From: Bdellovibrionota bacterium
GTDB lineage: Bacteria; Bdellovibrionota; UBA2394
Reading direction: 5' to 3'
Length of the DNA: 64,000 bases
Assembly (NCBI GenBank): GCA_044351695.1
Contig: JBILFF010000001.1
Coordinates: forward strand, 2,400-66,399
Of the stretch, positions 30,971-53,204 are shown in pieces. Position 1 is the stretch's first letter; every line of letters starts with the position of its first letter. Below the pieces are notes generated by a model. The model saw only the letters and a list, made by a program, of their open reading frames with translations. It did not search any database and was not told the origin of the DNA. A program made the position numbers and the translations under genes.

Positions 30971-31178
30971 GGTTTGCAAGGATAAGTGAACTCTTTGTCA
31001 TGGGAACGATGGGCTTACGAGAATTGCCCATGGACGACGATGACGAAAAGGTCGCACGCCCTCAAGCACCGGCTCCGGCACCAGCACCCACTCCGGTGTA
31101 TCACGCGCCACAGCCGTATCCGTATCCGCATCCCAAGTACTACAAAAAGAAATCACTACTTAAAGAGCTGTTTGATTT

Positions 31179-32081
31179 TTAAATCTCAATCGTCAGAATC
31201 TTTTTGATCCAAAGAGCGCCCATGGTGATGAAGACCAGCATAAGGCCAAGCAGAATTAAACCCAAGTTGGTGGTGAAAAGCAGGCCGATGTAGTCAGGCT
31301 GCGTGAAATACAAAAGTCCCATCATCACAAAGGGTAGAGACGAGAGAATAAATCCCTGAGTCACGCCCGCACTCACCATGGTTTTAATTTTTTCGTTCAC
31401 GCGCTGACGCTCGCGAATCGTGTGTGCAATGGTCTCAAACGCCTCGCTCAAATCTCCCCCCTGCTGAGAGAGCGTTACCACAGAGTTCACAATCATAAAC
31501 AAATCGGCAGAGGGCACGCGCTTGGACATATTCATAAGTGCCTCGTTCAGCGGAACCCCAATACGATTTTCTTTGATGACCATCGCAAACTCTTGCTTTG
31601 CCGGATTGGGCAGCTCTTGCTCAAGCAATTGCACCACTTGCAAAAAACTAAGGCCTGACTTGATCGCATTAGACATCATATTGAGCGCATCGATGAGCTG
31701 CAGATCAAACGTCTCAAGTCGTTTTTGATACACAAATCGAATCACGATGCCCGGCAAACGATAAGCGCCAAAGGCCAGGAGTGATCCTGCAATCAAACTA
31801 CCAATCAAACCAAAGCGAAGACCGATGAGAAGGCCCACGACCCCAAAAAAGATCGTGGTTCCTAAAATGATTTGATACGCGCGATTCATCGACTGGCGCA
31901 TGTACATGCGATCGAAGTAATCGTAGATCTCGGCAGCGTAGTCATGAACCCCGACCTTAATATCGCGCTCCCATTCTCCGTATTTGTTCATGAAGAGTAA
32001 GAAGAGCGCGACAAAAATCGAGGCCGCACCGAGAACCAAAAATACGTAATACTGCGCTTCGTTAAAAAAATTCTCGATCAT
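31179..32081 (-). CDS. tadB: Tad/Flp pilus assembly inner-membrane platform protein TadB-like (T2SS-F domain)
   Basis: T2SSF-type polytopic membrane protein (…AMVIKENRIGVPLNEAL…); 4-nt overlap with the upstream ATPase gene. Confidence 0.75.
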   Translation of the reverse strand: MIENFFNEAQYYVFLVLGAASIFVALFLLFMNKYGEWERDIKVGVHDYAAEIYDYFDRMYMRQSMNRAYQIILGTTIFFGVVGLLIGLRFGLIGSLIAGSLLAFGAYRLPGIVIRFVYQKRLETFDLQLIDALNMMSNAIKSGLSFLQVVQLLEQELPNPAKQEFAMVIKENRIGVPLNEALMNMSKRVPSADLFMIVNSVVTLSQQGGDLSEAFETIAHTIRERQRVNEKIKTMVSAGVTQGFILSSLPFVMMGLLYFTQPDYIGLLFTTNLGLILLGLMLVFITMGALWIKKILTIEI

Positions 32082-34441
32082 GCCTTAGTCCCCCGAATCG
32101 GTGCGCGAACGGGGAGTGGTCCGGGTGCGCCCGAGGCGCCCGGTGCTGCAGGACGTGAAATCGGTCGGGGAGTGGGTCCTCCCACTTTTGCCGCCATCGC
32201 CGCAGCTCCTGCTGCATTGGCTGGCATAGCGGCTGGACTTGAAGGTACCGAAGCCACGGCTGACCCTGCTGAGGGAGCCGCAGCTCCGCCACCACCAAAC
32301 ATTCCTTTGGGCAAAGCAATTCCTTTGGCCTTGAGTGACTCTACAAATTTGGGAATCAAACCCGACGGCTGATAAGTTCCCAAAACCTTACCCTTCTCAT
32401 CCGTCCCCGACTGCTTAAACTCAAAAATCGGTTGGGTCACAATCGTATCGCCCTCGAGACCCATGACCTCAGTGATATGCGAAATGCGGCGACTTCCGTC
32501 GCTAAAACGTCTGAGCTGAACAATCAAATTTACCGCGCCCGAAATCTGCTCACGAATCGCGTTAATCGGCATATCAAAACCCGCCATCATGACGAGCGTC
32601 TCGATCCGCCGCAAACAATCGCGTGGATTATTAGAGTGAATGGTCGTGAGCGATCCATCGTGGCCCGTGTTCATGGCCTGAAGCATATCGAGCGCTTCAC
32701 CCGCACGACATTCTCCCACCACAATTCGATCGGGTCTCATACGCAAGGTGTTTCGCACGAGATCGCGAATCGTAATTGCGCCCTCACCTTGTAAATTGGG
32801 CGGCTTGGTTTCAAGAGTAATCACATGAGGCTGCGGGAGCTGAAGTTCGGCCGCATCCTCTACAGTAATAATCCGCTCGTCCTCGGGAATAAAGCCTGAA
32901 ATCAAATTCAAAAGCGTCGTCTTACCAGAACCCGTTCCTCCGCTCACAATGATATTCAAATGGGCCTGAACAGCGGCCCGCAAAAAGTCTGACATCTCTT
33001 CAGTCAAGGACCCGTACTTCACCAGATCGGAAATCTGAAGTTTCTCTTTAAAGAATTTTCGAATCGTGAGCGTTGCACCCGAAAGTGCGAGCGGCGGAAT
33101 AATCACGTTGATACGAGATCCATCTTTAAGACGTCCGTCGCAAAGCGGGGTTTTCTCATCGACCCGCCGACCTATCGGCATCAGTATCCGATCGATACAA
33201 CTCATGAGTTGTTTTTCAGAGGTAAATCGCAGATCCGAGAGAAAAATCTTTCCCTTTTGCTCTACAAAAATTCGGTTGTGACCATTCACCATGATTTCGG
33301 TGACGTCTTTACTTTCAAGGAGCGGCTCTAATGGCCCGAGGCCCAAGGCTTCATCGATAATATCTTTGGCGAGGCCTGCGCGCTCTTTTCGATCTTGAAC
33401 TTCTTTTGCCTCTTCTTCGAGTAGGCGGTGTACGGCTTGAATGGTTTGGTTTTTTAATTCTTCACGCTTTCGAGGGTCTTTTTCGAGAGCGAGCGCATCC
33501 ATTTGCTTAAGATCCACCAACTCCAAAAGTCGATCGTGCACACGCATTCGAATGCTAATATTGCGAGTGAGAATGGGATCGGGCGTGCTGCCCGCCTTGG
33601 CGACCAGCTTATCGCTTACGCCTCCGCCGTAAGTAAAAGGCAGAACCGTTTTGAGCGAATCAAAAATCTGCAGAGCTCCGGGCTTGGAATTGGCGGGCTT
33701 GCCGGGCCGAATGCTCTCTTGCACGACACGAAGAGCTTCATCCATCGCCTTGATATAAGGATGCTTTGAATTCAAAAGATGCAGCGGCTTTGCGGTGGCC
33801 ACCGACTGCTGAAACGACGGGCTGTCTGCCGGCAAAAGAATTCGCGCATCGAGCTGCATTTTTTGTCGGAGGAGCGTTGGGTTTACGACTCCGCCCGGGT
33901 TAAAACGATTTACGACCAGTCGCAGTTGATCGTTTGAAAAATGAAGCGATCGAAGCCTCTTAATGTGCTCGCCCGATTGATTCACCGACAGAATGTCGGA
34001 ATCGGTGACCACGAAAATGAGATCGGAGTTCTCAAAAACTCTAAAACTAAGCGGGTTGATGTCTGCGCCCGCATCCACAATCACAAAGTCAAAGCTGCGC
34101 GCCAGAAGCTTAAGCGCCTTGTCGGCTACCACATCATCGAGATTCTGAAAGTCAGTTACAAAGTTGGCTGCATTCAAAATCGACAGGCCTGTCGAGTGTT
34201 TGCCCACCCAGTTCAGCGCAAGCTTGGGGTCCATCTTGTTCGACTCCTTCATAAAGTCGATCAAGGTTTTTTGATCTCTTGCGTTTAAGAAGGTCGAAAA
34301 ATCACCGAGATTTTTTACATCGGCCTCGACCAAACAAATCTTGCTCGCCCCACCTTGCATAAGACCCATGGCCAAATGAATGGCGTAGGTCGACTTACCC
34401 ACCCCATCTTTACCACCAGTGATCGAAATCAAAGCCCCCAT
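32078..34441 (-). CDS. fused TadZ/CpaE-like (ParA/MinD ATPase) and TadA/CpaF secretion ATPase, with low-complexity Gly/Ala/Pro C-terminal tail
   Basis: N-terminal deviant Walker A GGKDGVGKST (MinD/ParA-like); C-terminal VirB11/CpaF region (GGTGSGKTTLLN…TVEDAAELQL…TGHDGSLTTIHSN); 787 aa. Confidence 0.75.
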   Translation of the reverse strand: MGALISITGGKDGVGKSTYAIHLAMGLMQGGASKICLVEADVKNLGDFSTFLNARDQKTLIDFMKESNKMDPKLALNWVGKHSTGLSILNAANFVTDFQNLDDVVADKALKLLARSFDFVIVDAGADINPLSFRVFENSDLIFVVTDSDILSVNQSGEHIKRLRSLHFSNDQLRLVVNRFNPGGVVNPTLLRQKMQLDARILLPADSPSFQQSVATAKPLHLLNSKHPYIKAMDEALRVVQESIRPGKPANSKPGALQIFDSLKTVLPFTYGGGVSDKLVAKAGSTPDPILTRNISIRMRVHDRLLELVDLKQMDALALEKDPRKREELKNQTIQAVHRLLEEEAKEVQDRKERAGLAKDIIDEALGLGPLEPLLESKDVTEIMVNGHNRIFVEQKGKIFLSDLRFTSEKQLMSCIDRILMPIGRRVDEKTPLCDGRLKDGSRINVIIPPLALSGATLTIRKFFKEKLQISDLVKYGSLTEEMSDFLRAAVQAHLNIIVSGGTGSGKTTLLNLISGFIPEDERIITVEDAAELQLPQPHVITLETKPPNLQGEGAITIRDLVRNTLRMRPDRIVVGECRAGEALDMLQAMNTGHDGSLTTIHSNNPRDCLRRIETLVMMAGFDMPINAIREQISGAVNLIVQLRRFSDGSRRISHITEVMGLEGDTIVTQPIFEFKQSGTDEKGKVLGTYQPSGLIPKFVESLKAKGIALPKGMFGGGGAAAPSAGSAVASVPSSPAAMPANAAGAAAMAAKVGGPTPRPISRPAAPGASGAPGPLPVRAPIRGTKA

Positions 34442-36102
34442 CAGTTCGCTCCTCCCTCATCATCGCCCGCCACAGGCTCAACTGCGTCGAGATTGATTTT
34501 TTGTCGAATGTCTTTAGACGCGTCTCGTGCTGAAACCAGAATCTCGGGCGTCACAAAGACAATAAAAATACTTCGGTCTTGGTTCATCGCGCGACTCTTA
34601 AAGACGTTAAAAATATTTCCGAGAGCGGGGGTCACGGGTGCTGTCAGCCCTGGGGCTTGAAACCCAAAAGGTTGCGGGGCATCTTTGATATCAACCATCG
34701 AGGTCTTCACCACACCCCCCAGAGCCACCGTTTCACCTGATCGAACGTAGTTTGAAGTGTCGACACTTGATTCATTAACAATCACGCCCTGAACTTCAGC
34801 TGTAGACGATCCCAGAGCACGCACCGATACCGAGACTTTCATATCAATAAAGTCTCTCTCATCGGCAGTGGGAGTCACATTCAGAGTGACCCCGATAGGT
34901 ACCGGCTCGCCCGAAGTCACCAGCTGACCCTGTTGATTGACGGACTGTAAGAACAACTGGCCTCCCGAATTGATGGCCGCCACTTCTCCGCTCTTCACCG
35001 AGACGCTGGGGTTATGAAACACTCGCGCCACTCCCAAAGCCTTGGCCGTAGAGAGTCGGGGCAAGAAGTCACTCAGAACCGCGGCAAAACTAAAGGGCTC
35101 TTGACCAGCCGGAGTAGGAAATGGACCCACTTGAGTTTGCGCCAACGCCACCGGCGCCCAGCTAAAACTAAAGTTTCGCATAAAAGACTTATTGAGCTCT
35201 ACAAAGTGAGCAGAGATTTGCACCAGTCTGGCGGGTCGAGAGTTTTTACGGTCCGGATTGACCGCGATCACGTTTACGATTTTGTCGGCGGGCACATAAA
35301 TGCCAGCAATCAAACCAGCTCGTTCTTTTTCTTGCTCAGTGGCGACCTCACCCTTCAAGACCACTCGGTCTCTTACGTTTTCGACTTCAACACCAGAGAT
35401 GTTGATTTCGTTTTTAATCCGCCGAGTGAGAATACGCTGCGTGTCTCGCGAGAGTCCTACCAAGTTAACGACCGATGTATTGCCCGCAGTCACCTCGGCA
35501 ATTCGATCGAGATCGGCCTGCAAAAACACTTCGCCCTCGATAATGATGCGGCTACCCACACGCTTAAAGCTTAGGCCTTCAATATCGCGCAAAAGAAACT
35601 TAAGATCTTTGACGTAGGCATCGAGATCACTCGACGTCACCACGAGCTCAATTTTATCTCGCTGAATGCCGCGCGAATCAAAAAGCAGGATGGCTGTTTG
35701 ACCAGGACTTAAGGGAGAGACGATCATTCGACGTCGCGGCCGATCTAAAATCGGAGCCGCTATCGAGGGATTACCAATCGCAATCTCACCAATATCATAG
35801 TCGAATTCGATCGTGCGGGGCACGTTGACCACCAAAAGAAGTTCGCGATTTCGAATTTTATCGATGGGTGTTGCATCGGTACTCAGACTGATGCCCGACG
35901 CTGGCGCACTTGAGCTGGGAGTACTTGGGCTTGAAGCGCTAGAGTCCTCAATCAAGGCGGGAGGAGGCGTTGCGCTCGAGTCGCTAGGCTGACTTGAATT
36001 ACTCGATTCTTGAGCATCGAGCTTGAGTGGTAAAGCTAAGAAGACAAGCACAATCCCAAAATTGAGGTGCTGGCGATAACTACTTTTAGAACGGAGTAGC
36101 AT
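34441..36102 (-). CDS. cpaC: Flp pilus secretin CpaC/RcpA-like
   Basis: Signal peptide, Ser/Pro-rich linker, C-terminal secretin-like region; position between cpaB and the ATPase as in tad/cpa loci. Start taken at an internal Met to limit overlap with cpaB. Confidence 0.65.
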   Translation of the reverse strand: MLLRSKSSYRQHLNFGIVLVFLALPLKLDAQESSNSSQPSDSSATPPPALIEDSSASSPSTPSSSAPASGISLSTDATPIDKIRNRELLLVVNVPRTIEFDYDIGEIAIGNPSIAAPILDRPRRRMIVSPLSPGQTAILLFDSRGIQRDKIELVVTSSDLDAYVKDLKFLLRDIEGLSFKRVGSRIIIEGEVFLQADLDRIAEVTAGNTSVVNLVGLSRDTQRILTRRIKNEINISGVEVENVRDRVVLKGEVATEQEKERAGLIAGIYVPADKIVNVIAVNPDRKNSRPARLVQISAHFVELNKSFMRNFSFSWAPVALAQTQVGPFPTPAGQEPFSFAAVLSDFLPRLSTAKALGVARVFHNPSVSVKSGEVAAINSGGQLFLQSVNQQGQLVTSGEPVPIGVTLNVTPTADERDFIDMKVSVSVRALGSSTAEVQGVIVNESSVDTSNYVRSGETVALGGVVKTSMVDIKDAPQPFGFQAPGLTAPVTPALGNIFNVFKSRAMNQDRSIFIVFVTPEILVSARDASKDIRQKINLDAVEPVAGDDEGGAN

Positions 36103-36961
36103 AAACCTGCCCTCCGCGAATCTCACGATAGGCCGGAGGTGGCCCAACGACGATTGGTAGTTTGATTCCAAAAGCTCTAAACGGATCGAGGTAGTCGAGG
36201 TTATCGACCGTGCTTGTATCTCCAAAGGGTCGCAGCGAGAGAACGATACGACCCGCTGCCTGAGCCAAGATGAGCTTTTGAACATCTTGAGGGCTTAAGG
36301 CCACCGTCACGTTTTTATTCGCAAGATCTCCGCCCTCAAAGGCAGAGGTCATTCGATTCACTTGCGCAGAAGGCAGGCGCTGATCTTGACCCACCGCAAT
36401 GATTTGAATGCGCTGAAAGATGGTACGAACTTCGGCCTTCAGCTCTTGTGTTTGCGCGTTTAGAGCCGCTGCCCCCGCCATACCGCCCCGCTCGATTTCT
36501 TTGGTGCTTACAAAAAGCGTGAGCAGAATATCTACAAAATGACCGGGGCGAATAAGCCCTGCCACACCCACCACATCCTGATCGTCACGAATACCGATGG
36601 TGACCGCTCGCATGCCTTCTGGAATTCTTTTATCGAGCGAGCTCTCATCAAACGGAATGAGTTTAGTCGTCATGATGGGCTCATTGGCCTTGATCGTCGA
36701 CTGAGCGACCTGGCCAATCACTTGTGACTCGTTTACCGCCGTCTGGGGCGGAACATAGCGAGTAGGCCACACCTCTTTAACCACCATGTCGGCGGTGATT
36801 CTTGAGCCAGGGACGATATCTTGAAGTGCCTTAATAATCAGACTCTTCTCATCCATGTCTCCCACACGATTGTCGACCGCCTTACTCACAGACAGCAGAT
36901 AGAACACGGCGGCTCCCACTGCTGCTGCCAATGACCAGACTATAGCGCGTTTGTTTTCCAT
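36086..36961 (-). CDS. cpaB: Flp pilus assembly protein CpaB/RcpC
   Basis: N-terminal TM, SAF-like domain; typical CpaB length (291 aa). Confidence 0.75.
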   Translation of the reverse strand: MENKRAIVWSLAAAVGAAVFYLLSVSKAVDNRVGDMDEKSLIIKALQDIVPGSRITADMVVKEVWPTRYVPPQTAVNESQVIGQVAQSTIKANEPIMTTKLIPFDESSLDKRIPEGMRAVTIGIRDDQDVVGVAGLIRPGHFVDILLTLFVSTKEIERGGMAGAAALNAQTQELKAEVRTIFQRIQIIAVGQDQRLPSAQVNRMTSAFEGGDLANKNVTVALSPQDVQKLILAQAAGRIVLSLRPFGDTSTVDNLDYLDPFRAFGIKLPIVVGPPPAYREIRGGQVYATPF

Positions 36962-36962
36962 C

Positions 36963-39900
36963 TCAGTTCGTAGCCTTTCGCTCCTGCGACTTCAGAATTT
37001 CTGCAAATCGCATTTTTGTTTCGACATAACGACGGGACTTTTCTTGGTAATGCGCCTTGAGCGCCTCCAAAGTTTCTCGACCCGTCGTAAACTTAACTCG
37101 TGTGTAAATCTCTTCGGCTCGCTTCAAGCGCTCGTACTGAGAATCAGCAGGACTCATCTCGGCCTTACGATAAGCCTTGATCATTTGCGCAGCGGCTCGA
37201 GCGGCCTGAGCAAAGCGTCGCTCTTCGCTGAATCCACTGGCAATCACGGGACGATCCGATAGTTTTTCTTCGGCAACGCGTACTAAGTGAAAAACTTTTT
37301 GGGCTTCTTTGTAGCGCTCTTGATAGTTTTGGTGGGCCTTTGCAATCAGAGCTCGGTCTGCCTCGAGGCGTGCACCAGGAGCCGGTCGCTTAAGTTTTCG
37401 ATCGAGAATCTTTTGAGCCTCGTCAATTTTTTTCTGAAGTGCATTTAAATAAACCTCTGTTTGCAGCTCGCCCTCGGCCGCTCGGGCCTCGATGCTTTGT
37501 ATCGCCTCTTGAGAGGCCTCCAGAGTTCGCCAAAGGGCCGCCCCGTCGCGGTGACCAAATCGTCGCAAGACCTCGCGCTGAGAGATTTGACTGAGGGCAT
37601 TTGAGAGCGCCGTTAAACTGCCCGCATGACTTGAGCCTTCAAAGTTTTCTTTGAGAGCTCGAGGAAAATTTTGCTCTCCTTGTCGACGAATATTGTCGGC
37701 AAGAGCGGCTGTAAATTGCTGTTCGGCACGAACGATTTTTGGATTCAGGCTCATGCGACGACCGGCATTGCCCATGTCAACCGCGCCTGGTGCGCCTGAG
37801 TTCGAAGCCATCTGGCGCGCATAAGATTCTTCGCGATCGACGATGCGCTGCACGCTTTGATACGCCAAGAGCATGTCTTGAACAATTTGCTGATCAGGGG
37901 TTCGGCCCTGTGCCGTTTCTCGAGTGATATGATCCTCAGCCTGAGCAATCACACTCATGTATTCATCAAATCGAGCACGGTCGCCCTCCGTCAGCTGGGC
38001 ACGAATCGAGTTGGCCTTAGAATTGATCGTCGTCATTTTTTGACGAACATCACTTGCGGCCACCACTTCAACCGCGCTAGCCGGCTTACCGCTAGGGCCG
38101 CGATTTCGAGCAAACGAAGCGGCCTCGCTACTGGCTTGATTTTCCAACTCGCCGATTTCTTTTTGGGCCGCTGCATAATCAGCCCGCCCTTGGGCTTCGA
38201 TCTGATCAGCTACATCTTGAGCTTGATTGTATGCCTCGACCGCGCCCTTCACACCACCAGCCGTACCCACGACCATGTTGCCCGCATTGATCGTGGCGTT
38301 CACCGTTTTGAAGGCATCATTCGCCTTTTCGAAAGACGTTCGATTGTCGGGCGCTGCTTCTTTTGAGTTTGCATCTTTGTTGCCCTCACCAGAGGCTACG
38401 GCTTGGCCTGCGGCGTCTTTTTCTTTGCTCGAATTTTTAGCGTATTCGCCCACGGCGTCGGCAAACATTCCCGCAGCGCCTACTAATGCCAGCGCTCCCG
38501 CTCCCATGGTGGCGTAACCAAATTTTTCAGCCAACTCTTGATTACCAGTGGCCTGAGCGATGCTGCCGCCCACTGCTGCCACCCCGCCGATCGCGGCTCC
38601 CGTTTGAGCCAAGGCCTCAAAAGGTTTATCACTCAAAGAAATTTTGCCTGACTGCACACCGTGAGCAAATGAGCCCACCCCTCCCACTGCGGCAAGTGCC
38701 CCACCAGCAAGGCCGAGGCCCTTGGCGACTCCACTATCTGGATCTGCTATTCCAACAATCCCGCCGGCACCACTAATCAAGCCCCCCGCAGCGGTGACGG
38801 CCTCCCACTTAGCCCCGTCGACCCACTTGCCCTCTTTGATCCAGGTGTCAGTGACGCCTGTATAATTTTCTCCAAAACTAAAAGCAGCTCCACCAAAACC
38901 AGAAACAGTGCTCACGATACCCGCTGCTCGGCCAAAGTTAGGGTCGACGAATCCTCCAATCGTTCCTACACCGCCAGAAACTCCACTGATTCCTTTAAAA
39001 ATGTCTGAACCCAAACCCGCTTGGCCTAGAGTTTGGTTGTTCACTGTGAAACCATCAAATTTTTGAAAACTTGAAATTCCGCCTGCAATTCCTCCAGCGG
39101 CCCCAGTGATAGCTGCGGCCATACCCAAAGCCTCACTTTGATTTCCGCCGAGTGCTAAGCCCGCGTTCACTAAATTGAGTCCATTAGAAACTGTGTTTAA
39201 AACCTGGCCGGTATTGTAGATGACAAAGCCTTCTTTGAGTCCCTGCCCCCCTCCTAGAAACTGTACAATGTTATTGAGAGTGCTATTGGCGGTCGCACCC
39301 GCTGCCGCCCCCGTGTTTGCAGCACTTGCAGCACTTGCTGCGTTTATCGCTTGAATGTTTGCAATCGATGCCATCGCAAGAGAGACGATGGCTGCAACAC
39401 CTCCTCCTGTAATTCCATCCATCGCGCTCACAGTGCCTCGAAAGTTGTGCGCTTCTTGAGCAAGTCGTGGGTCGTTCTCGACGATTTGCTTGAGCTGCTC
39501 TTCAATAAACTGCGTGTTGTCAATGAGGCCCACACCCGCCACATCGGCGGCCTGCATGAGCGGCTGAAGTTTTAATAGGTGAACTCCGCCACTATAAATT
39601 CCGGTGCCGCCACCAAAACCAGCGGCCTGATTCAAGTTTAGATCTGAGGGGTCTTCATTTAATTTCAAAGATCGATTAGAGGCAATCGCCACCGTTTGAC
39701 TCATGACCCACTCACGAGCTGCTATGTCATCACCACCAATATCCCACTTGTATTTAACAACCCCCGTCGGAAAACTAAATTGCTGCCAAAAACGATTTTG
39801 TACTTTGGGCAGGGCGCCATCAAACTGCATCTCGCCCTCAACTGCTTTTTTAAAACTATCGATCTTGTCGAGCTCGATGCGAGTGCCCGGGGTTTCTTTG

Positions 39901-40157
39901 CCCAACTGAAACACAAGAAAACCTTTGTTGTTCTGCAGATCGTCTTCGCCAAATCTCTCGGTTCCGAAATCCGAAAAATTACCCAGCTCTAAAAAGGCTT
40001 GCGACCGAGCTAACATGGTTTGCTTTTGACTAATCTCGAAAAGATTATTCATCACAAAGGCCGCACCGAAAAAGAAAACCACCAAAGAAAGCACCGCAAA
40101 AAGCTCAATAACGCTTTGAGCTCGATGCGATTTATACTGGCGACTGGTGCTCTTCAT
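36963..40157 (-). CDS. giant (1064 aa) Gly/Ala-rich protein with prepilin/TadE-like N-terminus (putative giant pseudopilin or pilus tip protein)
   Basis: N-terminal …HRAQSVIELFAVLSLVVFFFG matches the Flp/TadE-type prepilin pattern (A/G|Q-x-x-x-E plus hydrophobic helix); long GGxG-rich repeats; C-terminal coiled-coil-like region. Confidence 0.55.
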   Translation of the reverse strand: MKSTSRQYKSHRAQSVIELFAVLSLVVFFFGAAFVMNNLFEISQKQTMLARSQAFLELGNFSDFGTERFGEDDLQNNKGFLVFQLGKETPGTRIELDKIDSFKKAVEGEMQFDGALPKVQNRFWQQFSFPTGVVKYKWDIGGDDIAAREWVMSQTVAIASNRSLKLNEDPSDLNLNQAAGFGGGTGIYSGGVHLLKLQPLMQAADVAGVGLIDNTQFIEEQLKQIVENDPRLAQEAHNFRGTVSAMDGITGGGVAAIVSLAMASIANIQAINAASAASAANTGAAAGATANSTLNNIVQFLGGGQGLKEGFVIYNTGQVLNTVSNGLNLVNAGLALGGNQSEALGMAAAITGAAGGIAGGISSFQKFDGFTVNNQTLGQAGLGSDIFKGISGVSGGVGTIGGFVDPNFGRAAGIVSTVSGFGGAAFSFGENYTGVTDTWIKEGKWVDGAKWEAVTAAGGLISGAGGIVGIADPDSGVAKGLGLAGGALAAVGGVGSFAHGVQSGKISLSDKPFEALAQTGAAIGGVAAVGGSIAQATGNQELAEKFGYATMGAGALALVGAAGMFADAVGEYAKNSSKEKDAAGQAVASGEGNKDANSKEAAPDNRTSFEKANDAFKTVNATINAGNMVVGTAGGVKGAVEAYNQAQDVADQIEAQGRADYAAAQKEIGELENQASSEAASFARNRGPSGKPASAVEVVAASDVRQKMTTINSKANSIRAQLTEGDRARFDEYMSVIAQAEDHITRETAQGRTPDQQIVQDMLLAYQSVQRIVDREESYARQMASNSGAPGAVDMGNAGRRMSLNPKIVRAEQQFTAALADNIRRQGEQNFPRALKENFEGSSHAGSLTALSNALSQISQREVLRRFGHRDGAALWRTLEASQEAIQSIEARAAEGELQTEVYLNALQKKIDEAQKILDRKLKRPAPGARLEADRALIAKAHQNYQERYKEAQKVFHLVRVAEEKLSDRPVIASGFSEERRFAQAARAAAQMIKAYRKAEMSPADSQYERLKRAEEIYTRVKFTTGRETLEALKAHYQEKSRRYVETKMRFAEILKSQERKATN

Positions 40158-41449
40158 TAGTGCAAGAACCTCTTAATCACATCTTCGGCGGTTTCTTGTT
40201 GTTGATTGGGTCCTTTGGGTCCAACGTACTGCATGTACTTCCACAGATCGCCGTAGTCCTCTTTGATCGGTGTGGTTCGAGGATCCAAAAGTAGTTTTCG
40301 AATTCCGGCGAGTCGCACACCAAAAGGCATATATTCACTCTTGGCCAGACTGCCCCCAAAAGGCTCGGCCGCAGAGACCGCAGCAAGTCGAGTACGAGTC
40401 GGAAAGAGAGAGCCCGTTGCACCCAGAGAATTTTCGAGATTCATAAACGTGCCTGACTGCGGAAACCAGTCGGCCGCAACAACCGCAAAGGGTTTTGGCT
40501 TATGCGGATTCTCTACAAAATGAATGGGAATCGCGTTGCCATCGATTTTTGAGAGCCGGTTGATCTTACCAATATTTCCCACACCCTCTCGTCCTAGGGC
40601 GTAAGCCGAAAGCGCAAGCGCCAGACCCGGAAAGCCACCCGACGTGCCCGCTCCGTTCACCGGACAGTAATACAGTGGCGGACACTTTGAGGGATCCGGG
40701 CAGGCATTGACACACATCGGCCCGAAATAAATAAGAGTGTGGGGCACTCCCGCAACCACTTGAGCGAGGTAGGCCCCCTTGTTGCTTGAAAAAGTGAGAA
40801 TCGCATTCTTTCGTTTTTGGCCCGATGCCGGGTTGGAGGCGTTGACGATCTCGTCCAGTTGGTTGGTGGTATCACCAGAACTCAAAAGCCCACCGCCATC
40901 TATTGTAAGCTCTGGCACATTGGCGCGCATCGTCGCCTCTGCCGCTTTTTGCATGGCTTTTGGTAGCTGCTGAAGAATGCGACGAATCTCTTCATGCTGT
41001 TGCATGATGCGTTCTTTGGCATCATCGTAGGTGTCTAAAGCGCGGCCAGCCACGACGACATTCATCGCGTTACATGCCACTGAGCAAGAGCCAGGGTCTG
41101 GCCAGATGCCCGGAAAGGCCACACGATTGGGGCGCTTGTTAATATCTTCAATTAACTTGAAGTACTCTTCTCTGATTTTAAAATTTTTTGCCTGAATTGA
41201 ATTTTCGCCCGAACTATAATTACCCAAATAATTGGCAGCGACAGATGCGGCAGAGTAAGCCGCCATATCTGTGGCTGTTTGCAAACGGATTTTTTGCCAA
41301 ACCATAAAGCCGCTGTTGATCACGAGCATAAAAAATCCCATGAACAATCCAAAAATCATCGTAAAGAAAACAAGTGCAATCGCTCGCCTTGACGATGGAT
41401 GAAGGAGCCTCGATTTAGTTGCTGGGCGAATTCGCATTCTGATCCTCAT
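40157..41449 (-). CDS. TadG-like (Tad_N domain) pilus assembly protein
   Basis: N-terminal TM followed by …QKIRLQTATDMAAYSAA, typical of the TadG N-terminal domain; start uncertain. Confidence 0.55.
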   Translation of the reverse strand: MRIRMRIRPATKSRLLHPSSRRAIALVFFTMIFGLFMGFFMLVINSGFMVWQKIRLQTATDMAAYSAASVAANYLGNYSSGENSIQAKNFKIREEYFKLIEDINKRPNRVAFPGIWPDPGSCSVACNAMNVVVAGRALDTYDDAKERIMQQHEEIRRILQQLPKAMQKAAEATMRANVPELTIDGGGLLSSGDTTNQLDEIVNASNPASGQKRKNAILTFSSNKGAYLAQVVAGVPHTLIYFGPMCVNACPDPSKCPPLYYCPVNGAGTSGGFPGLALALSAYALGREGVGNIGKINRLSKIDGNAIPIHFVENPHKPKPFAVVAADWFPQSGTFMNLENSLGATGSLFPTRTRLAAVSAAEPFGGSLAKSEYMPFGVRLAGIRKLLLDPRTTPIKEDYGDLWKYMQYVGPKGPNQQQETAEDVIKRFLH

Positions 41450-42239
41450 CTTGATTTTCTTGTGAAGGCGCCTCAACGACTCCAGACTCAAGGCCTGGGT
41501 TGAGCAGTACAGGCACGTAAACCTTATGCCATCGACGAGCGCGCTCGCGATCGTCTACCTGCTTTTCAACGGTGATCCCGCCCTCCGTGGTCGGCTGCTT
41601 GCCATCGAAGACACTGTAGGGGTTAAACAAAAGGCGGTTCTTAAATTGTAGTCGCATGATTGCGTAACGCAGGGGTTCGCGATCTTTCTCTTTAAATCCT
41701 CCTGAGAGGGCCTCGAGCTGAGCTCGATTTGCAAAATTAGACAAAGCATTATCTTCGTATTTTAAAAACGTAATCGACTTATTGATGTTGGTGCTTTCGT
41801 ACTTTCTTTCGCCCTCCATACAGGCGGCTCGTTCTTGATCTTGAGTGGGCGCTGCAGAAGTTAAATCTCCCTGAGGAGGCCGAACCCAGGGCAGTGCGCA
41901 GGTAAAAATATCTTCGGCCGTTCGAATGACGGTTAGAGTTTTTTCGGAACTCAAAAGACCAAGGTCGCCACTCGTGCCGCGCTCTTTGAACGCGTCTTTA
42001 CCGGTGTGATCGCCATACACCTGGTAACTTCGAGCAGCCATGAAAGCTGCGTAAGTGGCAACGGTTCGAGTGTGCATATAAACCCCAAGGTTAATGGTGG
42101 CAAAAGCGAGAAAGATGATGCTTGTGAAAACAAAGGCGGTCTCCAGAGCGGTTTGAGCCCGCTCTGGATTTCGCAACTTGAAACACAACCGACTCCGAGT
42201 CCCCGAATGTAAAAGTAGGGAGTTCACGAGGCCGAGCAT
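41415..42239 (-). CDS. TadE-like pseudopilin
   Basis: N-terminal …RAQTALETAFVFTSIIFLAFATINLG (TadE-type prepilin helix). Confidence 0.6.
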   Translation of the reverse strand: MLGLVNSLLLHSGTRSRLCFKLRNPERAQTALETAFVFTSIIFLAFATINLGVYMHTRTVATYAAFMAARSYQVYGDHTGKDAFKERGTSGDLGLLSSEKTLTVIRTAEDIFTCALPWVRPPQGDLTSAAPTQDQERAACMEGERKYESTNINKSITFLKYEDNALSNFANRAQLEALSGGFKEKDREPLRYAIMRLQFKNRLLFNPYSVFDGKQPTTEGGITVEKQVDDRERARRWHKVYVPVLLNPGLESGVVEAPSQENQDEDQNANSPSN

Positions 42240-42249
42240 CCTCTCTCGC

Positions 42250-42459
42250 TTACCGAGGTACAGTGGCGTTACCCTGAATAAGATTCTTTTGAATATCTTC
42301 AGAGAGTTTACCCTCGATCGCTTTTTTGACTTTATCGCCCACCACGTTCCAAGACGCCATGATCACTAGCGTAATGGCGCCAACCACCAGAGCGTACTCC
42401 AGAGCGGTTTGAGCTTTTCTGTTTTTTCGGGTTTTGAGTTTTTGAATCATTCGTTTCAT
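42250..42459 (-). CDS. flp: Flp family type IVb/c pilin
   Basis: …RKAQTALEYALVVGAITLVIMA carries the Flp motif (x-TA-LEY plus hydrophobic core); about 69 aa from an internal Met. Confidence 0.7.
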   Translation of the reverse strand: MKRMIQKLKTRKNRKAQTALEYALVVGAITLVIMASWNVVGDKVKKAIEGKLSEDIQKNLIQGNATVPR

Positions 42460-42517
42460 CGGTATTGCTTCTCCTTTTACAAAGTGGTTAATGGGGACAA
42501 ACTTTTGAGCAGCGTCA

Positions 42518-42769
42518 CTACGGGTAGGGGCGTCCAATCACGCCCATTTTTTCTTCGTCGCCGTAGGCGCTCTTGACGACATTACGAACGAGATTGTCTT
42601 TTTTGTTATCACCTGAGTCTTTGAGGTAGCTGTTGAGCACGATCGCGACCGGAATCACAAAAACCGCAATCATCAAAAAGTATTCGAGCGTCGTCTGAGC
42701 TCTGCGACGACTTACTTTAGAGCTCGAGCGTAAAAGACTTTGGGTGTTAAAAATCGCCTTCATCCGCAC
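42518..42769 (-). CDS. flp: Flp family pilin (second copy)
   Basis: …RRAQTTLEYFLMIAVFVIPVAIV Flp motif. Confidence 0.7.
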   Translation of the reverse strand: MRMKAIFNTQSLLRSSSKVSRRRAQTTLEYFLMIAVFVIPVAIVLNSYLKDSGDNKKDNLVRNVVKSAYGDEEKMGVIGRPYP

Positions 42770-47700: not shown

Positions 47701-50277
47701 TTACTGCAAATTTTTTCGTCTCACCGCTTGAAAGCGACGATTTGCTTTATCGGCCAGCTCGCCGCGAGGGTCTACCGTGTCGAGCGTCTTTTTATAGAAT
47801 TGCTCGGCCGCCACAATGTCGTCGGCCTCAAACTCAAAAACACGCGCCTGATTATAAAGCTGGGCCCCTTTGGCAGAGGTTTTAGACTCCAGCTCTGCCC
47901 GAATCTCTAGAAAGCTTTGATGATCTACACCCACCTGATCGCCAATTTGATACAGAAGATCCCAGGCCTGTTTAAAATTTTCAATCTGCACTAAGCTGGT
48001 AATGTCTTGTCGGGTTCGGTCGAGAGTCACTTTTATTTCTCTGATCAAGTCATCGCGCAAGCCCTCCATGCTCGCAATATCGCCGTGATCAGGATAGGCT
48101 CTGATGAAATCATTCGTCTTACGAAGCGAGTCCGAATACCGCTTTGCCAGAAACAGCTGATTGATCTCGGCAATCAAGTCTGCCCCCTTTTCTTCTTGCT
48201 TGGCAATCAGCGCCCGCCTTTTGCTGCGCTCCTCTATCGATTGATTCATTTGCCGCTGCTTGCCGCGCCACTCTGTCCCTGCACTGGTGACATACTCTGC
48301 AAATTGAGGCTTTTGCTTCACCAAATTGTCGAGGCGCTCTAAAAGTTTGGTCGCATAATCTTTTGCCCCATCAAAATCTTGGGCGCTCACATATTCTTCA
48401 TAGGTCTTATTATGCTGCATCATGATCTTTACAAAAGTCTCTCGCTCTTCCGGGGTAACCAACTGCCCCTTTTCGAGCCCCACAAAACTCATGCGCTCAT
48501 CGAGCTCCTTTCGCATGGTAAGCAGCTCGGCATTCTCTGGCGCCTCTTTTAAAAACAAATCCACATACTTTGAAGCCTCTTCATTGCGCTGCGCCTTAAA
48601 GGCCTCAATCATCCGTGATCTCATCAGAGCAAAAACTTCGGCGATGTTTCCGTTGTTGTCGATCAGCGCTTGAGTGAGCTCGGGATCAGAAAGAATACTG
48701 TGGTAAAGCTCTGCCGGCACTTGCTGCAAATACTGTTTCATGTCTTCGGGTAGCGGAAAACTTTGCATTTTTTGTAAGACCAAACTTTTGACGTCTTCGG
48801 GCGCAGCCTCACTGATCGGCTTGCCAAGATCTTGCGCAATTTGCGCGGGCAGAGCGCTTAATTGGCCCTGCACAAAACCCTTCAAACTGCTTTGCAAAAA
48901 TTCCTGAATGCGCGCCGTGTTTTGAAAGGCCCAGAAACTTCCAGCAAGCACAATAGTAGCGAGCGCGAGCCACCGCATTCTTTTTGAGCCCGATCGCTTT
49001 AGCTTACGATTGTTTGTCGGAATCATCATCGTCTCTTGGTTTGAGTTGGGAGGCTCAGACCCATCGAGCGCCGCATCGGAATCGGAAGCGGCAGCGGCAC
49101 CAGACTCCAAATCGCCCTCGACTTCAAATCGCAGCTTGAGATTACCTATCTGAATGATATCGAAATTTTTAAGCACGGCTTCGGGCTGTGTTTTGTCGTT
49201 CACCTGAACGCCATTGGTCGACTGAAGATCAACAACCACAATCTGGCCCTGAACCTCTCGGAACTCTGCATGAAAGCGAGAGGCGTTTGAGTCATCGACA
49301 CTCAAGTCGTTCTTCGGATCACGCCCGATCGAGTAGGGCAGCCGCGTGAGCTCAATCTCACCTTCAATCGGAGAGTGCGCCAGCGGGATCAGTCGATAAA
49401 TCGGCTCGTCCGCTCTTTGCGCTTTGCTTATGGGGTACTCAAAAGCCACTGTCTTTCGCGAGATCCCACTGCCGGCCGGCACCACGGCTTCTTTATAGCT
49501 TTCGTAGAGCTCATCGATGGGATCTTCAGCTCCACCCGAGGCTTCATCTGCCAAACCTTCGAGCGCAGCCTCAGCCGCCAGCTCGCTCTCGGGAATTTTT
49601 TTAGTGAAAGCCTCTGCTTGATCGATGCCCTCATCGGCAAAAGGGGCCGCACTCAAATCTTGCGATAAAATTTGAGACTCGCTCAGGCCCTCAATGGCAT
49701 CAGACAAAATAATCGTGCGCGACGAATGAGATTCAGCGATCGAAGTTTTTGATTTAGCCGTCGATTGATCTTCAAACTCAACAAAGCTTTCAGCCTGGCC
49801 ATGAAGCCTAGTTTTGCGACTGTCTGCCCGATAGCTTTGAGCAAAGATATCGGTGGCTCGCGAGGCATCGGCCTCCTCAACCCCCGCTAAAAGTTTGTCT
49901 TCGAGCGTGGCGTCTTGCTGAAGCTCTTGAATCAAAACCGCCTCTTCTTGATCTCCGTAAATGTTGGTTTGCCGAAAGCCCCCTGACTCTGCCTGAATCG
50001 TCGCCTCATCACCAAAGTCGTTTTCAGTAATTTCTTGAGTGGCAGTAGGCTCCTCCGACAAAAAGCCGGGGCTGTCAGGCGAATGCGCGAAGACTTCGTC
50101 TGAATGCGCTGGCACATCACTCAGTGGGTGAGACTGCTCTAAGGTGGTGCTCGGCTCATCCGTGACCGGAGCGGCGACGGCCGCAACACTCGATGAAGAG
50201 GCCTTTGCCTTCGAGTGGATTGCCGAACTGTCGGACATGCCGATCAGTTTTAAAAAGCTGTCATTTGCTGCACTCAT
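47701..50277 (-). CDS. FHA-domain membrane protein (acidic N-terminal region, FHA, TM, periplasmic helical C-terminal domain)
   Basis: FHA signature …YSIGRDPKNDLSVDDSNASRFHAEF…TNGVQVN; TM MRWLALATIVLAGSFWAF; 858 aa. Confidence 0.65.
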   Translation of the reverse strand: MSAANDSFLKLIGMSDSSAIHSKAKASSSSVAAVAAPVTDEPSTTLEQSHPLSDVPAHSDEVFAHSPDSPGFLSEEPTATQEITENDFGDEATIQAESGGFRQTNIYGDQEEAVLIQELQQDATLEDKLLAGVEEADASRATDIFAQSYRADSRKTRLHGQAESFVEFEDQSTAKSKTSIAESHSSRTIILSDAIEGLSESQILSQDLSAAPFADEGIDQAEAFTKKIPESELAAEAALEGLADEASGGAEDPIDELYESYKEAVVPAGSGISRKTVAFEYPISKAQRADEPIYRLIPLAHSPIEGEIELTRLPYSIGRDPKNDLSVDDSNASRFHAEFREVQGQIVVVDLQSTNGVQVNDKTQPEAVLKNFDIIQIGNLKLRFEVEGDLESGAAAASDSDAALDGSEPPNSNQETMMIPTNNRKLKRSGSKRMRWLALATIVLAGSFWAFQNTARIQEFLQSSLKGFVQGQLSALPAQIAQDLGKPISEAAPEDVKSLVLQKMQSFPLPEDMKQYLQQVPAELYHSILSDPELTQALIDNNGNIAEVFALMRSRMIEAFKAQRNEEASKYVDLFLKEAPENAELLTMRKELDERMSFVGLEKGQLVTPEERETFVKIMMQHNKTYEEYVSAQDFDGAKDYATKLLERLDNLVKQKPQFAEYVTSAGTEWRGKQRQMNQSIEERSKRRALIAKQEEKGADLIAEINQLFLAKRYSDSLRKTNDFIRAYPDHGDIASMEGLRDDLIREIKVTLDRTRQDITSLVQIENFKQAWDLLYQIGDQVGVDHQSFLEIRAELESKTSAKGAQLYNQARVFEFEADDIVAAEQFYKKTLDTVDPRGELADKANRRFQAVRRKNLQ

Positions 50278-51206
50278 CGTCTTATTAACTTTTTCTTCTT
50301 AGCCTCTTCGAGTTGCTGACGCGCGCTCTTGCGAACCACAGAGTCATCGTCGGCGATTAATAAAACCTCTTGAAACTTCACAATGGCCAAATCGTAGTAA
50401 TAGTTTTCGAGAGCTCGAGAGCCCTCTTCAAAGCGAAGGTCTGCTAAGGCGGTCTGATTGGTCTTCACTCGCTGTACGGCTTCACACACCTCGCGCGTAT
50501 TTTCCATTCGAGCAAAGCAGGCCAGGGCCAATCTATAGTTGCCCAAATCTTCATGCTCTCGGCAGGCCTCAAAGGCCTGAACGGGAGTAGGTTGTTTAGA
50601 GATTTTCGCGGCCGCACAGGGGTTGTCTTGAATCGCCGCCTGCGCTTGTTCTAGAATCTGCTGACTGCCCGTGGGCCCTCCCAGCATCTGCACTAAAACA
50701 ATCATGAGCAGAAGCACGCCTCCGCCCACGATGATTTTTTTCTTGAGCGGCGGGAGCGCCGCAAAGCGATCCAATAAACTTGCGCGAGGAGCCAGCCCAA
50801 CTGCCGTTTCTTCGGTCGGTCCTGAGGGTTTTGTTTTTGGGTGTTTCTGAAAGAACTGGCCCTCAAGATCTCCGATTTCAAAACGATCGTTATTTCGCAG
50901 CTCGGCTCGCTGCACGCGCTTTCCCTTCACTTTGATTCCATTGCGACTTTTTAAATCTTCGATAAATACGCCGCTCTCAGTCACATAAAACTGCGCGTGT
51001 TGTCGCGACACGCTCGGGTGATCAATCACAATTTGGTTTTCAGAAGCGCGACCCAGGGTAACGATCTCTGCCGAGAGGCTATACTCGCGGCCCTCGATAC
51101 GAATCAAACACTCGGGGGGTAATGGCTCGCCCCTCAGCTGACTTGAGCTTGCGGCGTAGGGATCTACTTTTGAGATCGATCTTCTGTTTTTTATGTTCGT
51201 ACTCAT
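50274..51206 (-). CDS. FHA-domain membrane protein with periplasmic TPR-like C-terminus
   Basis: FHA …VTLGRASENQIVIDHPSVSRQHAQF…SRNGIKV; TM IIVGGGVLLLMIVLV; 4-nt overlap with the downstream gene. Confidence 0.65.
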   Translation of the reverse strand: MSTNIKNRRSISKVDPYAASSSQLRGEPLPPECLIRIEGREYSLSAEIVTLGRASENQIVIDHPSVSRQHAQFYVTESGVFIEDLKSRNGIKVKGKRVQRAELRNNDRFEIGDLEGQFFQKHPKTKPSGPTEETAVGLAPRASLLDRFAALPPLKKKIIVGGGVLLLMIVLVQMLGGPTGSQQILEQAQAAIQDNPCAAAKISKQPTPVQAFEACREHEDLGNYRLALACFARMENTREVCEAVQRVKTNQTALADLRFEEGSRALENYYYDLAIVKFQEVLLIADDDSVVRKSARQQLEEAKKKKLIRR

Positions 51207-51249
51207 CGCTTCGCCGTCCTTGGTGTCTGTCGGCGAACCAGCTTGAAAC

Positions 51250-52842
51250 TTAAGCTTGGTAGAAGAACAACAAGGTCGCTACTTGCTTACCTTGATGTAG
51301 AAGCGGCATGCCCCGAACTTGTAAGATCCGGTCAGTGGCCGATACCGCCCTATCCATTACTTCCGGCGATCCACTCAACTCATTCAAAAAAGCCATCAGC
51401 TCCATTTGAAGGTGAGTGTCGGCAATGGCCTCAGTCACATGTTTTTGTGACCAATCCGATTGCATCGGAACAATGTCTTGGAGGTAACCCGAAACCGCCA
51501 TCACCTGGTTGTCCGGATCCACCGCCATAACGGCTCGTTCTTCCAACAGAAACACCTGATCTAAAAGAGTTTGCAAGAAGCCTGCCTCAGCCTGAGACCC
51601 CTCTGCCCCCCCCTTAACCCCCTGATTTACCTTTGAAATCAGCCGATTCAACTCGGCCACCAACTCGTCAAAGGCCGCAAAGCTTTGCAGACTCTCCACA
51701 TTTTGCGCTGTGCCCGTGTAGAGCAGATGAACCTCTTCGGTCAGGCTTCGAATGCCCTGCTTGGTCCAATACAAAACCGCCCAGACCAAAAGCAAAGAGA
51801 AGATCAGTACCAAAATTAAAGTTTGAGTTCGTATCGATGAAAACTTATCGATGGCTCGATTAAACTCTAGTGGTTCAAACAAAATTCGCGTGTACCCCAC
51901 CAGCTCCGGAGGGGCTGCGCCCTCTTTGCGCACCCGCACCGGATACACCACCTCGCACTGATCTCCGTTTTGACCCAAAAGTTTTGAGCCGCAAGTATCA
52001 ACGCGATTTTGAGTTCTCTGCGCCTCAAGAAACAAATCGTCTTTGGGCATCTTCACTCCGATCGGACACAAAGTGCCCCCGTCCTTGCCCAAAATAAATG
52101 CCTGATTCACACCCTCATTTCGGCCATAACCTTCGCAATCAAAAATGAGTTGCGACTGGGCTAAACTGAGCTTGGATCTCTCGCCCAAATTCTCGGCCAG
52201 AAGCTGCGCGTTCTTGCGCGCCTCAGCTAAAAAACGGAGCCGAGCCTCGGTATGGAGCGCTTGATACGATACAAAATGAAATCCAATGGCGCCCAAAATC
52301 ATCAGCAAAATAATTTTGAATTTAAAGTCGAGACGCTCAAATCGAGCATGAACAATCCCCGCCAGGGCCCGAAGCCGCGCGATCGGCGATTCCCGAGGGC
52401 CCATCGCCAGCGGTAAATTTGGATCAGGAGCGTCCTCTGCAAAACCCTCCGACTCAGCAGCGGCCGCCTGCTTTGCGTCGGCCATCGCATCCGCCCTGTT
52501 TTTGTAGGCTGTCTTTCTTTGTACCAGAGTTCGGGCCAGCTCTGCTTCGAGCTTAAATCCAAACTCGCCAAGCTCTACTCGATCGCCACTCTTGAGCGCC
52601 GCTGCCGGCACCTTTCTGCGATTTACACGTATGCCATTAAAGCTTTTGAGATCTCGTATCTTCCACTGTCCGTGTTCAAAAAAAATTTCTGCATGATTTC
52701 TGGAAACGGTTTGAGAGGGGAGCTCAATCGCCGAGAGCTCTTCTGCCGCTTCGGGCTCACGGCCTAATCGATAGACCTTTGATTCTTCGAGCTCAAAATC
52801 GCGTCCCGCCAGGGGGCCCTTTACAAAACGAATCCTTACCAT
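51250..52842 (-). CDS. FHA-domain protein with two TM helices and a C-terminal sensor-like domain
   Basis: N-terminal FHA (…YRLGREPEAAEELSAIELPSQTVSRNHAEI…FNGIRVN); TM segments near residues 170 and 340. Confidence 0.6.
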   Translation of the reverse strand: MVRIRFVKGPLAGRDFELEESKVYRLGREPEAAEELSAIELPSQTVSRNHAEIFFEHGQWKIRDLKSFNGIRVNRRKVPAAALKSGDRVELGEFGFKLEAELARTLVQRKTAYKNRADAMADAKQAAAAESEGFAEDAPDPNLPLAMGPRESPIARLRALAGIVHARFERLDFKFKIILLMILGAIGFHFVSYQALHTEARLRFLAEARKNAQLLAENLGERSKLSLAQSQLIFDCEGYGRNEGVNQAFILGKDGGTLCPIGVKMPKDDLFLEAQRTQNRVDTCGSKLLGQNGDQCEVVYPVRVRKEGAAPPELVGYTRILFEPLEFNRAIDKFSSIRTQTLILVLIFSLLLVWAVLYWTKQGIRSLTEEVHLLYTGTAQNVESLQSFAAFDELVAELNRLISKVNQGVKGGAEGSQAEAGFLQTLLDQVFLLEERAVMAVDPDNQVMAVSGYLQDIVPMQSDWSQKHVTEAIADTHLQMELMAFLNELSGSPEVMDRAVSATDRILQVRGMPLLHQGKQVATLLFFYQA

Positions 52843-53204
52843 TCGAGTCGATCCCCCACACGAAGATCGCCTAAATCACAGAGCGAAAACTCAACCAGAT
52901 AGCTACAGCCCCCCAGCAAATATCGCCCCGGAGCAATGAGCCGTCCGGGCTTAACCGCTCGATAGATTGCTCGCACTACTTTTTCAGAATTACAAAAAAC
53001 AATGTCGATCGAAAACTTCATGCCAAAAGTATGGACCACGGGCAAAAAGCCTCCGAGCGCCAAATCAAAAACCGCCGCCGATTGACGGGGGGCTTGCGAG
53101 TATTTAAGTAAGCCGCGGGCCCTCTCGGCAGCACTCCTAAAAAATTCGAGCCGCTCAGCAAGCAGTCGTTGGTCTCGATGGGCTTGTGCAAGTCTCGTGA
53201 TCAT
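52836..53204 (-). CDS. DUF192 (COG1430) family protein
   Basis: …MKFSIDIVFCNSEKVVRAIYRAVKPGRLIAPGRYLLGGCSYLVEF fits the DUF192 pattern (…ID.vF.d…V……P……YVLE); overlaps both neighbours. Confidence 0.55.
   Translation of the reverse strand: MITRLAQAHRDQRLLAERLEFFRSAAERARGLLKYSQAPRQSAAVFDLALGGFLPVVHTFGMKFSIDIVFCNSEKVVRAIYRAVKPGRLIAPGRYLLGGCSYLVEFSLCDLGDLRVGDRLEW

Follow-up and report, generated by a model that had tools for sequence, protein, structure and literature searches.

A 1064-residue protein with a prepilin-type N-terminus in a Kil-like Tad operon of a Bdellovibrionota bacterium: a candidate giant minor pilin

How the Tad and Kil pili of predatory bacteria recognise and damage their prey is an open question. 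A Tad operon of a Bdellovibrionota bacterium (GenBank assembly GCA_044351695.1, contig JBILFF010000001.1; the 64,000 nucleotides analysed, positions 2,400 to 66,399 of the forward strand, are referred to as the window) encodes a giant protein of 1064 aa and 115 kDa between a TadG-like gene and rcpC. With a probability of roughly 0.6, this giant is read as a minor pilin, or pseudopilin, of modular build that belongs to the Kil-like Tad (type IVc) pilus system of an organism of the Bdellovibrionota/Bradymonadales type. The open reading frame (ORF) and its regions were assigned as follows, in window positions:

36963..40157, minus strand: giant ORF, ATG start, 1064 aa
40119..40157, minus strand: leader peptide, residues 1–13, MKSTSRQYKSHRA, short and basic, with Ala at −1
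40050..40118, minus strand: predicted mature N-terminus and alpha1N, residues 14–36, QSVIELFAVLSLVVFFFGAAFVM, with Gln+1, Glu+5 and a hydrophobic tract
39423..40049, minus strand: rest of the conserved N-terminal module, residues 37–245, with alpha1C and predicted beta strands
38418..39422, minus strand: Gly/Ala-rich, charge-poor central region, residues 246–580, approximately 335 aa
36966..38417, minus strand: charged C-terminal region rich in Ala, Arg, Glu and Gln, residues 581–1064, predicted helical

The N-terminus reads MKSTSRQYKSHRA/QSVIELFAVLSLVVFFFGAAFVM (the slash marks the predicted cleavage site), a basic leader of 13 residues being followed by Gln+1, Glu+5 and about 22 hydrophobic residues, with a peak Kyte-Doolittle hydropathy of 2.5 in the tract at residues 14–36. 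Class III signals and pilins are defined by a hydrophilic leader ending in Gly or Ala, Glu+5 and approximately 21 hydrophobic residues, which form the alpha1N part of an alpha1 helix of about 50 residues; in the pilin fold, the beta-sheet of a globular head packs on alpha1C (Raynaud et al. 2021, PMC8179133). Since the leader, position −1, position +5 and the hydrophobic tract of the giant fit this definition, its N-terminus is, as judged from the sequence, a class III (prepilin) signal that is kept across the protein family described below. Among the other N-termini of the operon, the two Flp ORFs carry RRA/QTTLEY and RKA/QTALEY and the TadE-like protein ERA/QTALET, and [KR][GA]/Q[ST]xxE was common to both Flp pilins and the TadE-like protein in every related operon examined. 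The residue after Glu5 of the giant is Leu and not Tyr, Phe or Thr, a point of difference from TadE and TadF.

For a regular-expression control, six-frame translations of the window operon and of six related loci were searched with [GA][QSATN][STAV]xxE followed by a hydrophobic run; only the N-termini of the Flp, TadE-like and giant proteins were matched, plus one weak internal match. A profile built from Flp and TadE N-termini alone was run against 2368 ORF segments of all loci, where the N-termini of the giants ranked directly after the Flp and TadE proteins (E 0.017–0.7). Conservation was counted in 32 aligned family members with 20–48% identity to the window protein, 31 of them with a complete N-terminus: position −1 was Gly in 18 and Ala in 13, Gln+1 was present in 30/31 and Glu+5 (E18, invariant in alignment A3 as well) in 31/31, and the leaders were short and basic. 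Alternation of Gly and Ala at −1 within loci is shown by genuine Flp pilins as well. Because of the control search, the rank of the profile matches and the conservation across the family, the motif is not ascribed to chance, and the Flp/TadE-type prepilin N-terminus that the original prediction had seen on this protein was borne out. The objection that it could be an ordinary transmembrane (TM) helix, lacking a peptidase site kept in homologues, fails on Gly or Ala at −1 and Glu+5 in every homologue with a complete N-terminus.

The family was collected mainly by an exhaustive profile search of 1.84 billion representatives; a word-indexed homologue search had returned 5 relatives, and two further word-indexed searches added almost nothing. 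It comprises 39 representatives, 34 of them at E ≤ 1e-30, mostly of 800–1100 aa. All are proteins from metagenomes or metagenome-assembled genomes (MAGs), those with names being "hypothetical protein" from MAGs of Bradymonadales, Bdellovibrionota or "Deltaproteobacteria", and the genome loci belong to MAGs of Bacteriovoracaceae, Bdellovibrionota and Bradymonadales. The giant lies directly after the TadG-like gene in 9/9 related loci whose upstream flank was read (L001, L002, L003, L005, L006/L007, L008, L011 and L012), and in each of these, as in the window, the TadE-like, TadG-like and giant genes are neighbours. The giant precedes rcpC wherever the contig reaches that far (all but L012), with one extra gene inserted in L011. 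At the level of gene order, the giant was shown to be a fixed member of the block flp-flp-tadE-like-tadG-like-GIANT-rcpC-secretin-tadZ/A-tadB.

The same material bears on whether the ORF is genuine. That the ORF arose by mis-assembly or fusion, or is a non-coding frame within Gly/Ala-rich DNA, would be suggested by the compositional bias and the lack of database domains and by nothing beyond these, and the probability of such an artefact is negligible. More than 30 proteins of 800–1100 aa from several sources share the full-length architecture at 20–48% identity on independent contigs, an identical copy of the window protein was present in metagenomes of the Joint Genome Institute (P0001), synteny is kept, and the gene is tightly coupled to its neighbours at both ends. 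Its ATG overlaps the TAA stop codon of the upstream TadG-like gene (TAATG), which points to translational coupling, and a single base separates its stop codon from the start of rcpC. The GC content of the gene matches that of the adjoining genes, and the surrounding chromosomal housekeeping genes encode DnaK, GrpE, Lon, AlaRS, HisRS and UvrA. Since homologues on independent contigs share both architecture and gene position, a fusion or assembly artefact, raised as an objection beforehand, is excluded by the homologue set, and the ORF is taken as real. With a prepilin-type N-terminus throughout the family and an ORF that is no artefact, a pilus-borne role is reasonable.

Beyond the signal, residues 14–245 form the best conserved module of the family. 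This module is not Gly-rich and carries the invariant or near-invariant motif SQKQTML.R.QAF.ELGN in alpha1C, besides further positions of this kind. The structure prediction of the N-terminal part was run with AlphaFold2 (AF2) on 21 N-domain sequences and gave a 48-residue N-terminal helix (residues 11–58) followed by five beta strands (residues 80–159), at a mean predicted local distance difference test score (pLDDT) of 63, with block values of about 61–87 for the strands and mostly 73–88 across helix and strands. The predicted succession of a long helix and five strands resembles the pilin architecture of PMC8179133. The alpha1 helix gave a weak in-register match with the type IV pilin 6w8u in which Glu5 was aligned (E 0.66, not significant).

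The central region contains 20.6% Gly and 18.6% Ala and few charges, within a protein that has 15.2% Ala and 11.2% Gly overall. AF2 predicted at low confidence (pLDDT 21–43) approximately ten helices with a mean hydropathy near 1 and 0–2 charged residues each; the last of them (residues 540–578) has 7 charged residues. Its conservation in the family equals that of some parts of the N-domain, roughly speaking, which makes a simple linker function improbable. The earlier description, with GGxG-rich repeats over about 1000 aa, did not hold, the Gly/Ala-rich part being confined to approximately 335 aa. Self-BLAST found no internal repeat in the giant and Tandem Repeats Finder only a 22-nt array, by which a repeat protein was ruled out. 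The spacings GG, GxG, GxxG, GxxxG and GxxxGxxxG were in no excess over composition-matched shuffles (z about 0; 17 GxxxG observed against 14.3 expected, 2 GxxxGxxxG against 2.9, family median z about 0), and these statistics ruled out a glycine-zipper or GGxG motif; GxxxxxxG alone was mildly enriched in the giant (z 2.3).

For the C-terminal region, long helices were predicted by AF2 within residues 608–1062, with pLDDT 60–87 for about residues 690–1050. The coiled coil originally assigned to it was not confirmed: only a helical C-terminus was predicted, at low-to-moderate confidence, and a crude Fourier periodicity test over the whole region gave no 3.5- or 7-residue (heptad) signal. The last 100–150 residues or so are its better conserved part. 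In about half of the relatives (P0005, P0007, P0016, P0018, P0019, P0021, P0024–P0027 and P0029–P0033) the extreme C-terminus carries a conserved Cys-x4-6-Cys pair, preceded by a conserved RLKRAE..W…F.SPKEAL motif. Because of this pair, an extracytoplasmic, oxidising location of the C-terminus is suggested. Cysteine counts are 0 in the window protein and 0–3 in the family, where cysteines, if present, usually form one C-terminal C-x4-6-C pair; they have been lost from the window protein and from the members most closely related to it. With 6 sequences as input, AF2 gave a poor model of the full-length protein (pLDDT 41.9). Searches of Pfam, NCBIfam and PDB sequences with the giant gave nothing significant, and neither did fold searches with the full-length and N-domain models. 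A phage tape-measure-like protein was also considered and rejected, there being no PHROG match.

If the giant is a minor pilin, the following course may be proposed. A peptidase encoded elsewhere would cleave it after Ala13, and the Tad machine would pull the mature hydrophobic alpha1, beginning with Gln1 and bearing Glu5, out of the inner membrane. This alpha1 would bundle with those of the TadE-like and the Glu5-less TadG-like proteins into a priming or tip complex, in which the giant would have the place of a TadF/KilL-type subunit, below the TadG-like protein or at its side. The extension of approximately 820 residues would then pass through the secretin to the outside and be presented at the far end of the pilus, in contact with prey. 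GspK of the type II secretion system (T2SS) is the model for a topmost tip subunit without Glu5; by analogy, the Glu5-less TadG-like subunit would be topmost here, with the Glu5-bearing giant beneath or beside it and its extension reaching outward. The third, TadF/KilL-type slot is provisionally assigned to the giant because it is the only further protein of the operon with a pilin-type N-terminus, the other minor pilins being one Glu5-bearing TadE-like and one TadG-like protein. Kil and Tad tips are trimers (PMC12075869), and a third tip partner is expected because Bd0148 of the Bdellovibrio bacteriovorus tip model is numbered outside bd0109–bd0119.

The closest precedent is given by the Kil pili of Myxococcus xanthus, for which "Tip" complexes of the minor pilins KilL, KilM and KilN with a large subunit were described (Herrou et al. 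2025, PMC12075869). Analogous tips were predicted there for B. bacteriovorus (Bd0114/Bd0115/Bd0148) and Bradymonas sediminis, and the tip model places variable minor-pilin modules at the pilus end. The present locus is alike in that it is an operon of the Tad/Kil type, found in predatory lineages and including FHA genes, in co-encoding three pilin-type N-termini beside Flp (a small TadE-like protein, a Glu5-less TadG-like protein and a protein with a large extension), and in the role expected of the latter, which would expose a variable module where the pilus ends. It differs in that no sequence relationship of the Kil tip proteins to the giant was detectable, that the oversized subunit is a Glu5-bearing pilin and not of the TadG/KilN type, and that the extension is predicted to be helical, Gly/Ala-rich and Cys-free, whereas the Kil tips were described as disulfide-rich beta-scaffolds. 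Equating the giant with Bd0114, whose gene adjoins rcpC in strain HD100, was ruled out by the mature N-terminus of that protein: as read from the deposited model file of Herrou et al., it starts QIALFVALIFQILFL, without Glu5, and its sequence QIALFVALIF is of the TadG type (Bd0114 having more than 626 residues with high confidence in the deposited model). Because Bd0114 has no Glu5, it is regarded as the counterpart of the 444-aa TadG-like neighbour (RRA/IALVFF) and not of the giant.

Also relevant are the pseudopilins of the Tad systems themselves. These systems encode TadE, TadF and TadG, of which TadE and TadF are proteins of roughly 190 aa, and in the classical tad locus both are said, in work by Tomich et al. 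from 2006, to be processed by TadV. With TadE and TadF the giant shares a leader ending in a small residue, Glu+5, a hydrophobic alpha1N and a place in a tad operon beside tadG; it is about five times larger and falls below the Pfam TadE and Tad models. Modular type IV pilins (PilB and PilC of Streptococcus sanguinis, CofB of enterotoxigenic Escherichia coli, GspK of T2SS, ComZ) are alike in having a class III signal, a small pilin module and a bulky grafted module that is expected to be exposed at the tip. They belong to type IVa, type IVb, Com and T2SS systems, and their modules are mostly recognisable (von Willebrand factor A, lectin, beta-solenoid), whereas that of the giant is without a recognisable domain. 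Such pilins with grafted modules are widespread, and the most extreme one quoted in the survey has 860 residues, against 1064 here (PMC8179133). In view of the TadE/F/G pseudopilins, the Kil tips and the modular pilins, the original statement that model Tad systems lack a component of this sort was too strong. The novelty lies in this family and in how large its members are; the principle of a module-bearing pilus subunit was already established by Herrou et al. (2025) and the modular pilins.

Bd0109, encoded in the hit locus of B. bacteriovorus, was compared as well. It is likewise a large protein encoded in the Tad operon (bd0109–bd0119) of a Bdellovibrio-and-like organism, and both a pilin-like N-terminal element and an action on pili were proposed for it (PMC3818213, PMC5430801), but it is a YD/RHS-repeat protein with a Sec-type signal, and its gene lies on the tadB side of the cluster. 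The giant is not a homologue of Bd0109, since neither the window protein nor the 32 members gave an RHS/YD (PF05593) match.

Several points weigh against a minor pilin. For a Tad secretin, it would be unusual to transport a subunit of 115 kDa that includes a long stretch poor in charge, and the lack of cysteine sets the giant apart from the Myxococcus tip proteins. None of the 21 N-domains matched the TadE, Tad or N_methyl models of Pfam (one member reached N_methyl at E 0.1), and with TadE (PF07811) and Tad (PF13400) no match was obtained at E up to 1 for the 21 N-domains and the 32 full-length members. In hhalign comparisons with the TadE-like and TadG-like families, only the leader and the TM segment were aligned, at approximately 34% probability. 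Neither an A24 prepilin peptidase nor another small polytopic ORF was found anywhere in the window (64 kb) or within 10 kb of the operon of any related locus (L001–L012), so that processing of the giant is a prediction. TadV was reported missing from Bdellovibrio genomes (PMC5430801).

Part of this evidence is shared by the main rival, which is held to be unlikely. The giant would then be an unprocessed bitopic, or weakly polytopic, Tad component of the inner membrane whose N-terminal segment serves only as a signal-anchor, and which, as a structural, alignment or regulatory part spanning the periplasm, stays in the predator envelope and never enters the pilus. TadG of Aggregatibacter actinomycetemcomitans is reported to behave as such a non-pilus inner-membrane component. 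With this agree the lack of a prepilin peptidase gene nearby and of any pilin family match by Pfam or fold search, the presence of one strong TM segment and several marginal Gly/Ala central helices (Kyte-Doolittle 1.4–1.8), and a long helical C-terminus that could span the periplasm; in addition, the gene adjoins rcpC, which encodes the periplasmic alignment complex (PMC12307814). A mere anchor, however, needs no Gly or Ala at −1, Gln+1 and Glu+5 in register with the co-encoded Flp, and the TadG-like neighbour is an example of a Glu5-less N-terminus in the same operon. Nor are the central hydrophobic segments kept as TM segments, only about half of the members having so much as one above threshold. 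Given the strict conservation of positions −1, +1 and +5, this rival appears less likely on sequence grounds than a minor pilin.

More doubtful still is a membrane-active effector, a special case of the minor-pilin reading in which the pilus would carry the giant to the prey and the Gly/Ala-rich region would insert into the prey envelope as a pore or translocon, so that the protein would be a killing or entry factor of a Kil-like system. The approximately 335 residues of low-charge predicted helices with a hydropathy near 1.0 are conserved in the family, cysteines are absent or few, the family occurs only in predatory lineages and in Kil-like operons with FHA genes, and Gly-rich membrane-inserting segments are known from toxins of type VI and type VII secretion systems (PMC10240207, PMC10434224). 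Set against this, GxxxG and GxxxGxxxG were not above composition in the window protein or the family, neither a toxin nor an entry of Pfam, PHROG or PDB proved homologous, no gene of immunity type was noticed beside it, and the model of the central region is uninformative at its low pLDDT. A membrane-active role is suggested by the low charge and hydrophobicity of the extension alone, and it is weakened by the negative results for zipper motifs and homology.

Should the giant be a minor pilin, no larger subunit of pilin type would yet have been linked to a Tad system, and its module would be unlike any described, and the oversized subunit of such a tip could be a Glu5-bearing (TadF/KilL-type) pilin and not one of the TadG/KilN type. 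The family, confined to uncultured Bdellovibrionota and Bradymonadales, is a candidate for prey contact or envelope insertion; the extension may serve adhesion, envelope insertion or signalling. If the effector interpretation were true, contact-dependent predation by Tad pili would have in the giant its missing "killing/entry head", and delivery of an effector through fusion to a pilin would be a principle not yet demonstrated for Tad pili.

The remaining operon, which by its gene content is a Kil-like Tad arrangement as described for predatory bacteria (PMC12075869), was annotated as follows:

47701..54181, minus strand: Kil-like accessory genes upstream, encoding three FHA-domain proteins, a DUF192 protein and a second T2SSF (TadC-type) protein
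42518..42769, minus strand: second Flp-like pilin ORF, RRA/QTTLEY
42250..42537, minus strand: Flp pilin ORF, RKA/QTALEY
41415..42239, minus strand: TadE-like minor pilin, 274 aa, ERA/QTALET, PF07811 at 28.4 bits, above cutoff
40157..41491, minus strand: TadG-like minor pilin, 444-aa ORF, N-terminus RRA/IALVFF without Glu+5
36086..36961, minus strand: RcpC/CpaB homologue, directly downstream of the giant
34441..36285, minus strand: Tad secretin (RcpA/CpaC type)
32078..34441, minus strand: TadZ/CpaE-TadA/CpaF fusion ATPase, 787 aa
31179..32081, minus strand: TadB-type platform protein (T2SSF)

The Flp ORF at 42250..42537 is likely to start at an internal MKRMIQKL, for a product of about 69 aa, the size found in L006 and L008. 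The TadG-like ORF scored 19.5 bits with PF13400, below threshold, and its orthologues have recorded PF13400 hits (L011 unmarked, L012 weak); its TTG start overlaps the preceding gene by 77 nt, the real start probably being an internal MRIRMRIR. The secretin ORF overlaps its preceding gene by 200 nt and probably also starts internally (553 aa in the source record). The TadZ-TadA fusion is kept in all related loci at 777–801 aa.

FHA genes upstream of the pilin block are typical of Kil-like predatory Tad clusters; the three encoded here (858, 310 and 530 aa) are consecutive and have the same place in L011 and L012. Just upstream of flp (42918–46187, minus strand) lies a gene for a 1089-aa protein that starts in the manner of a lipoprotein (…LFLVAC…), is charged and helical in its N-terminal part and has long stretches rich in Ala and Ser. 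It gave no Pfam, NCBIfam or PHROG match, and homology to the giant was looked for and not found. Genes of similar size occupy this position in L008 (1057 aa, weakly similar at either end), L011 (1168 aa) and L012 (974 aa). Between it and the FHA genes, an AAA_14/DUF4143 ATPase is encoded on the plus strand (46450–47610); the gene of this type in L006 (809–1960, minus strand) is on the opposite strand, just upstream of the flp genes.

Directly after tadB (29304–31031, minus strand), a Fic-domain protein (Pfam annotation of the source record) and a His/Pro-rich ORF of 196 aa, with no Pfam hit on record, are encoded, and this pair is also present on the source contig. At 24898–26989 on the plus strand, a second T2SSE-family ATPase (389 aa, possibly for retraction) is paired with a DUF915/DUF676 lipase-like alpha/beta-hydrolase; the same pair was found in L008 (16308–18178) and L011 (21620–23330), and in all three loci it lies a few kb from the Tad operon and beside lon.

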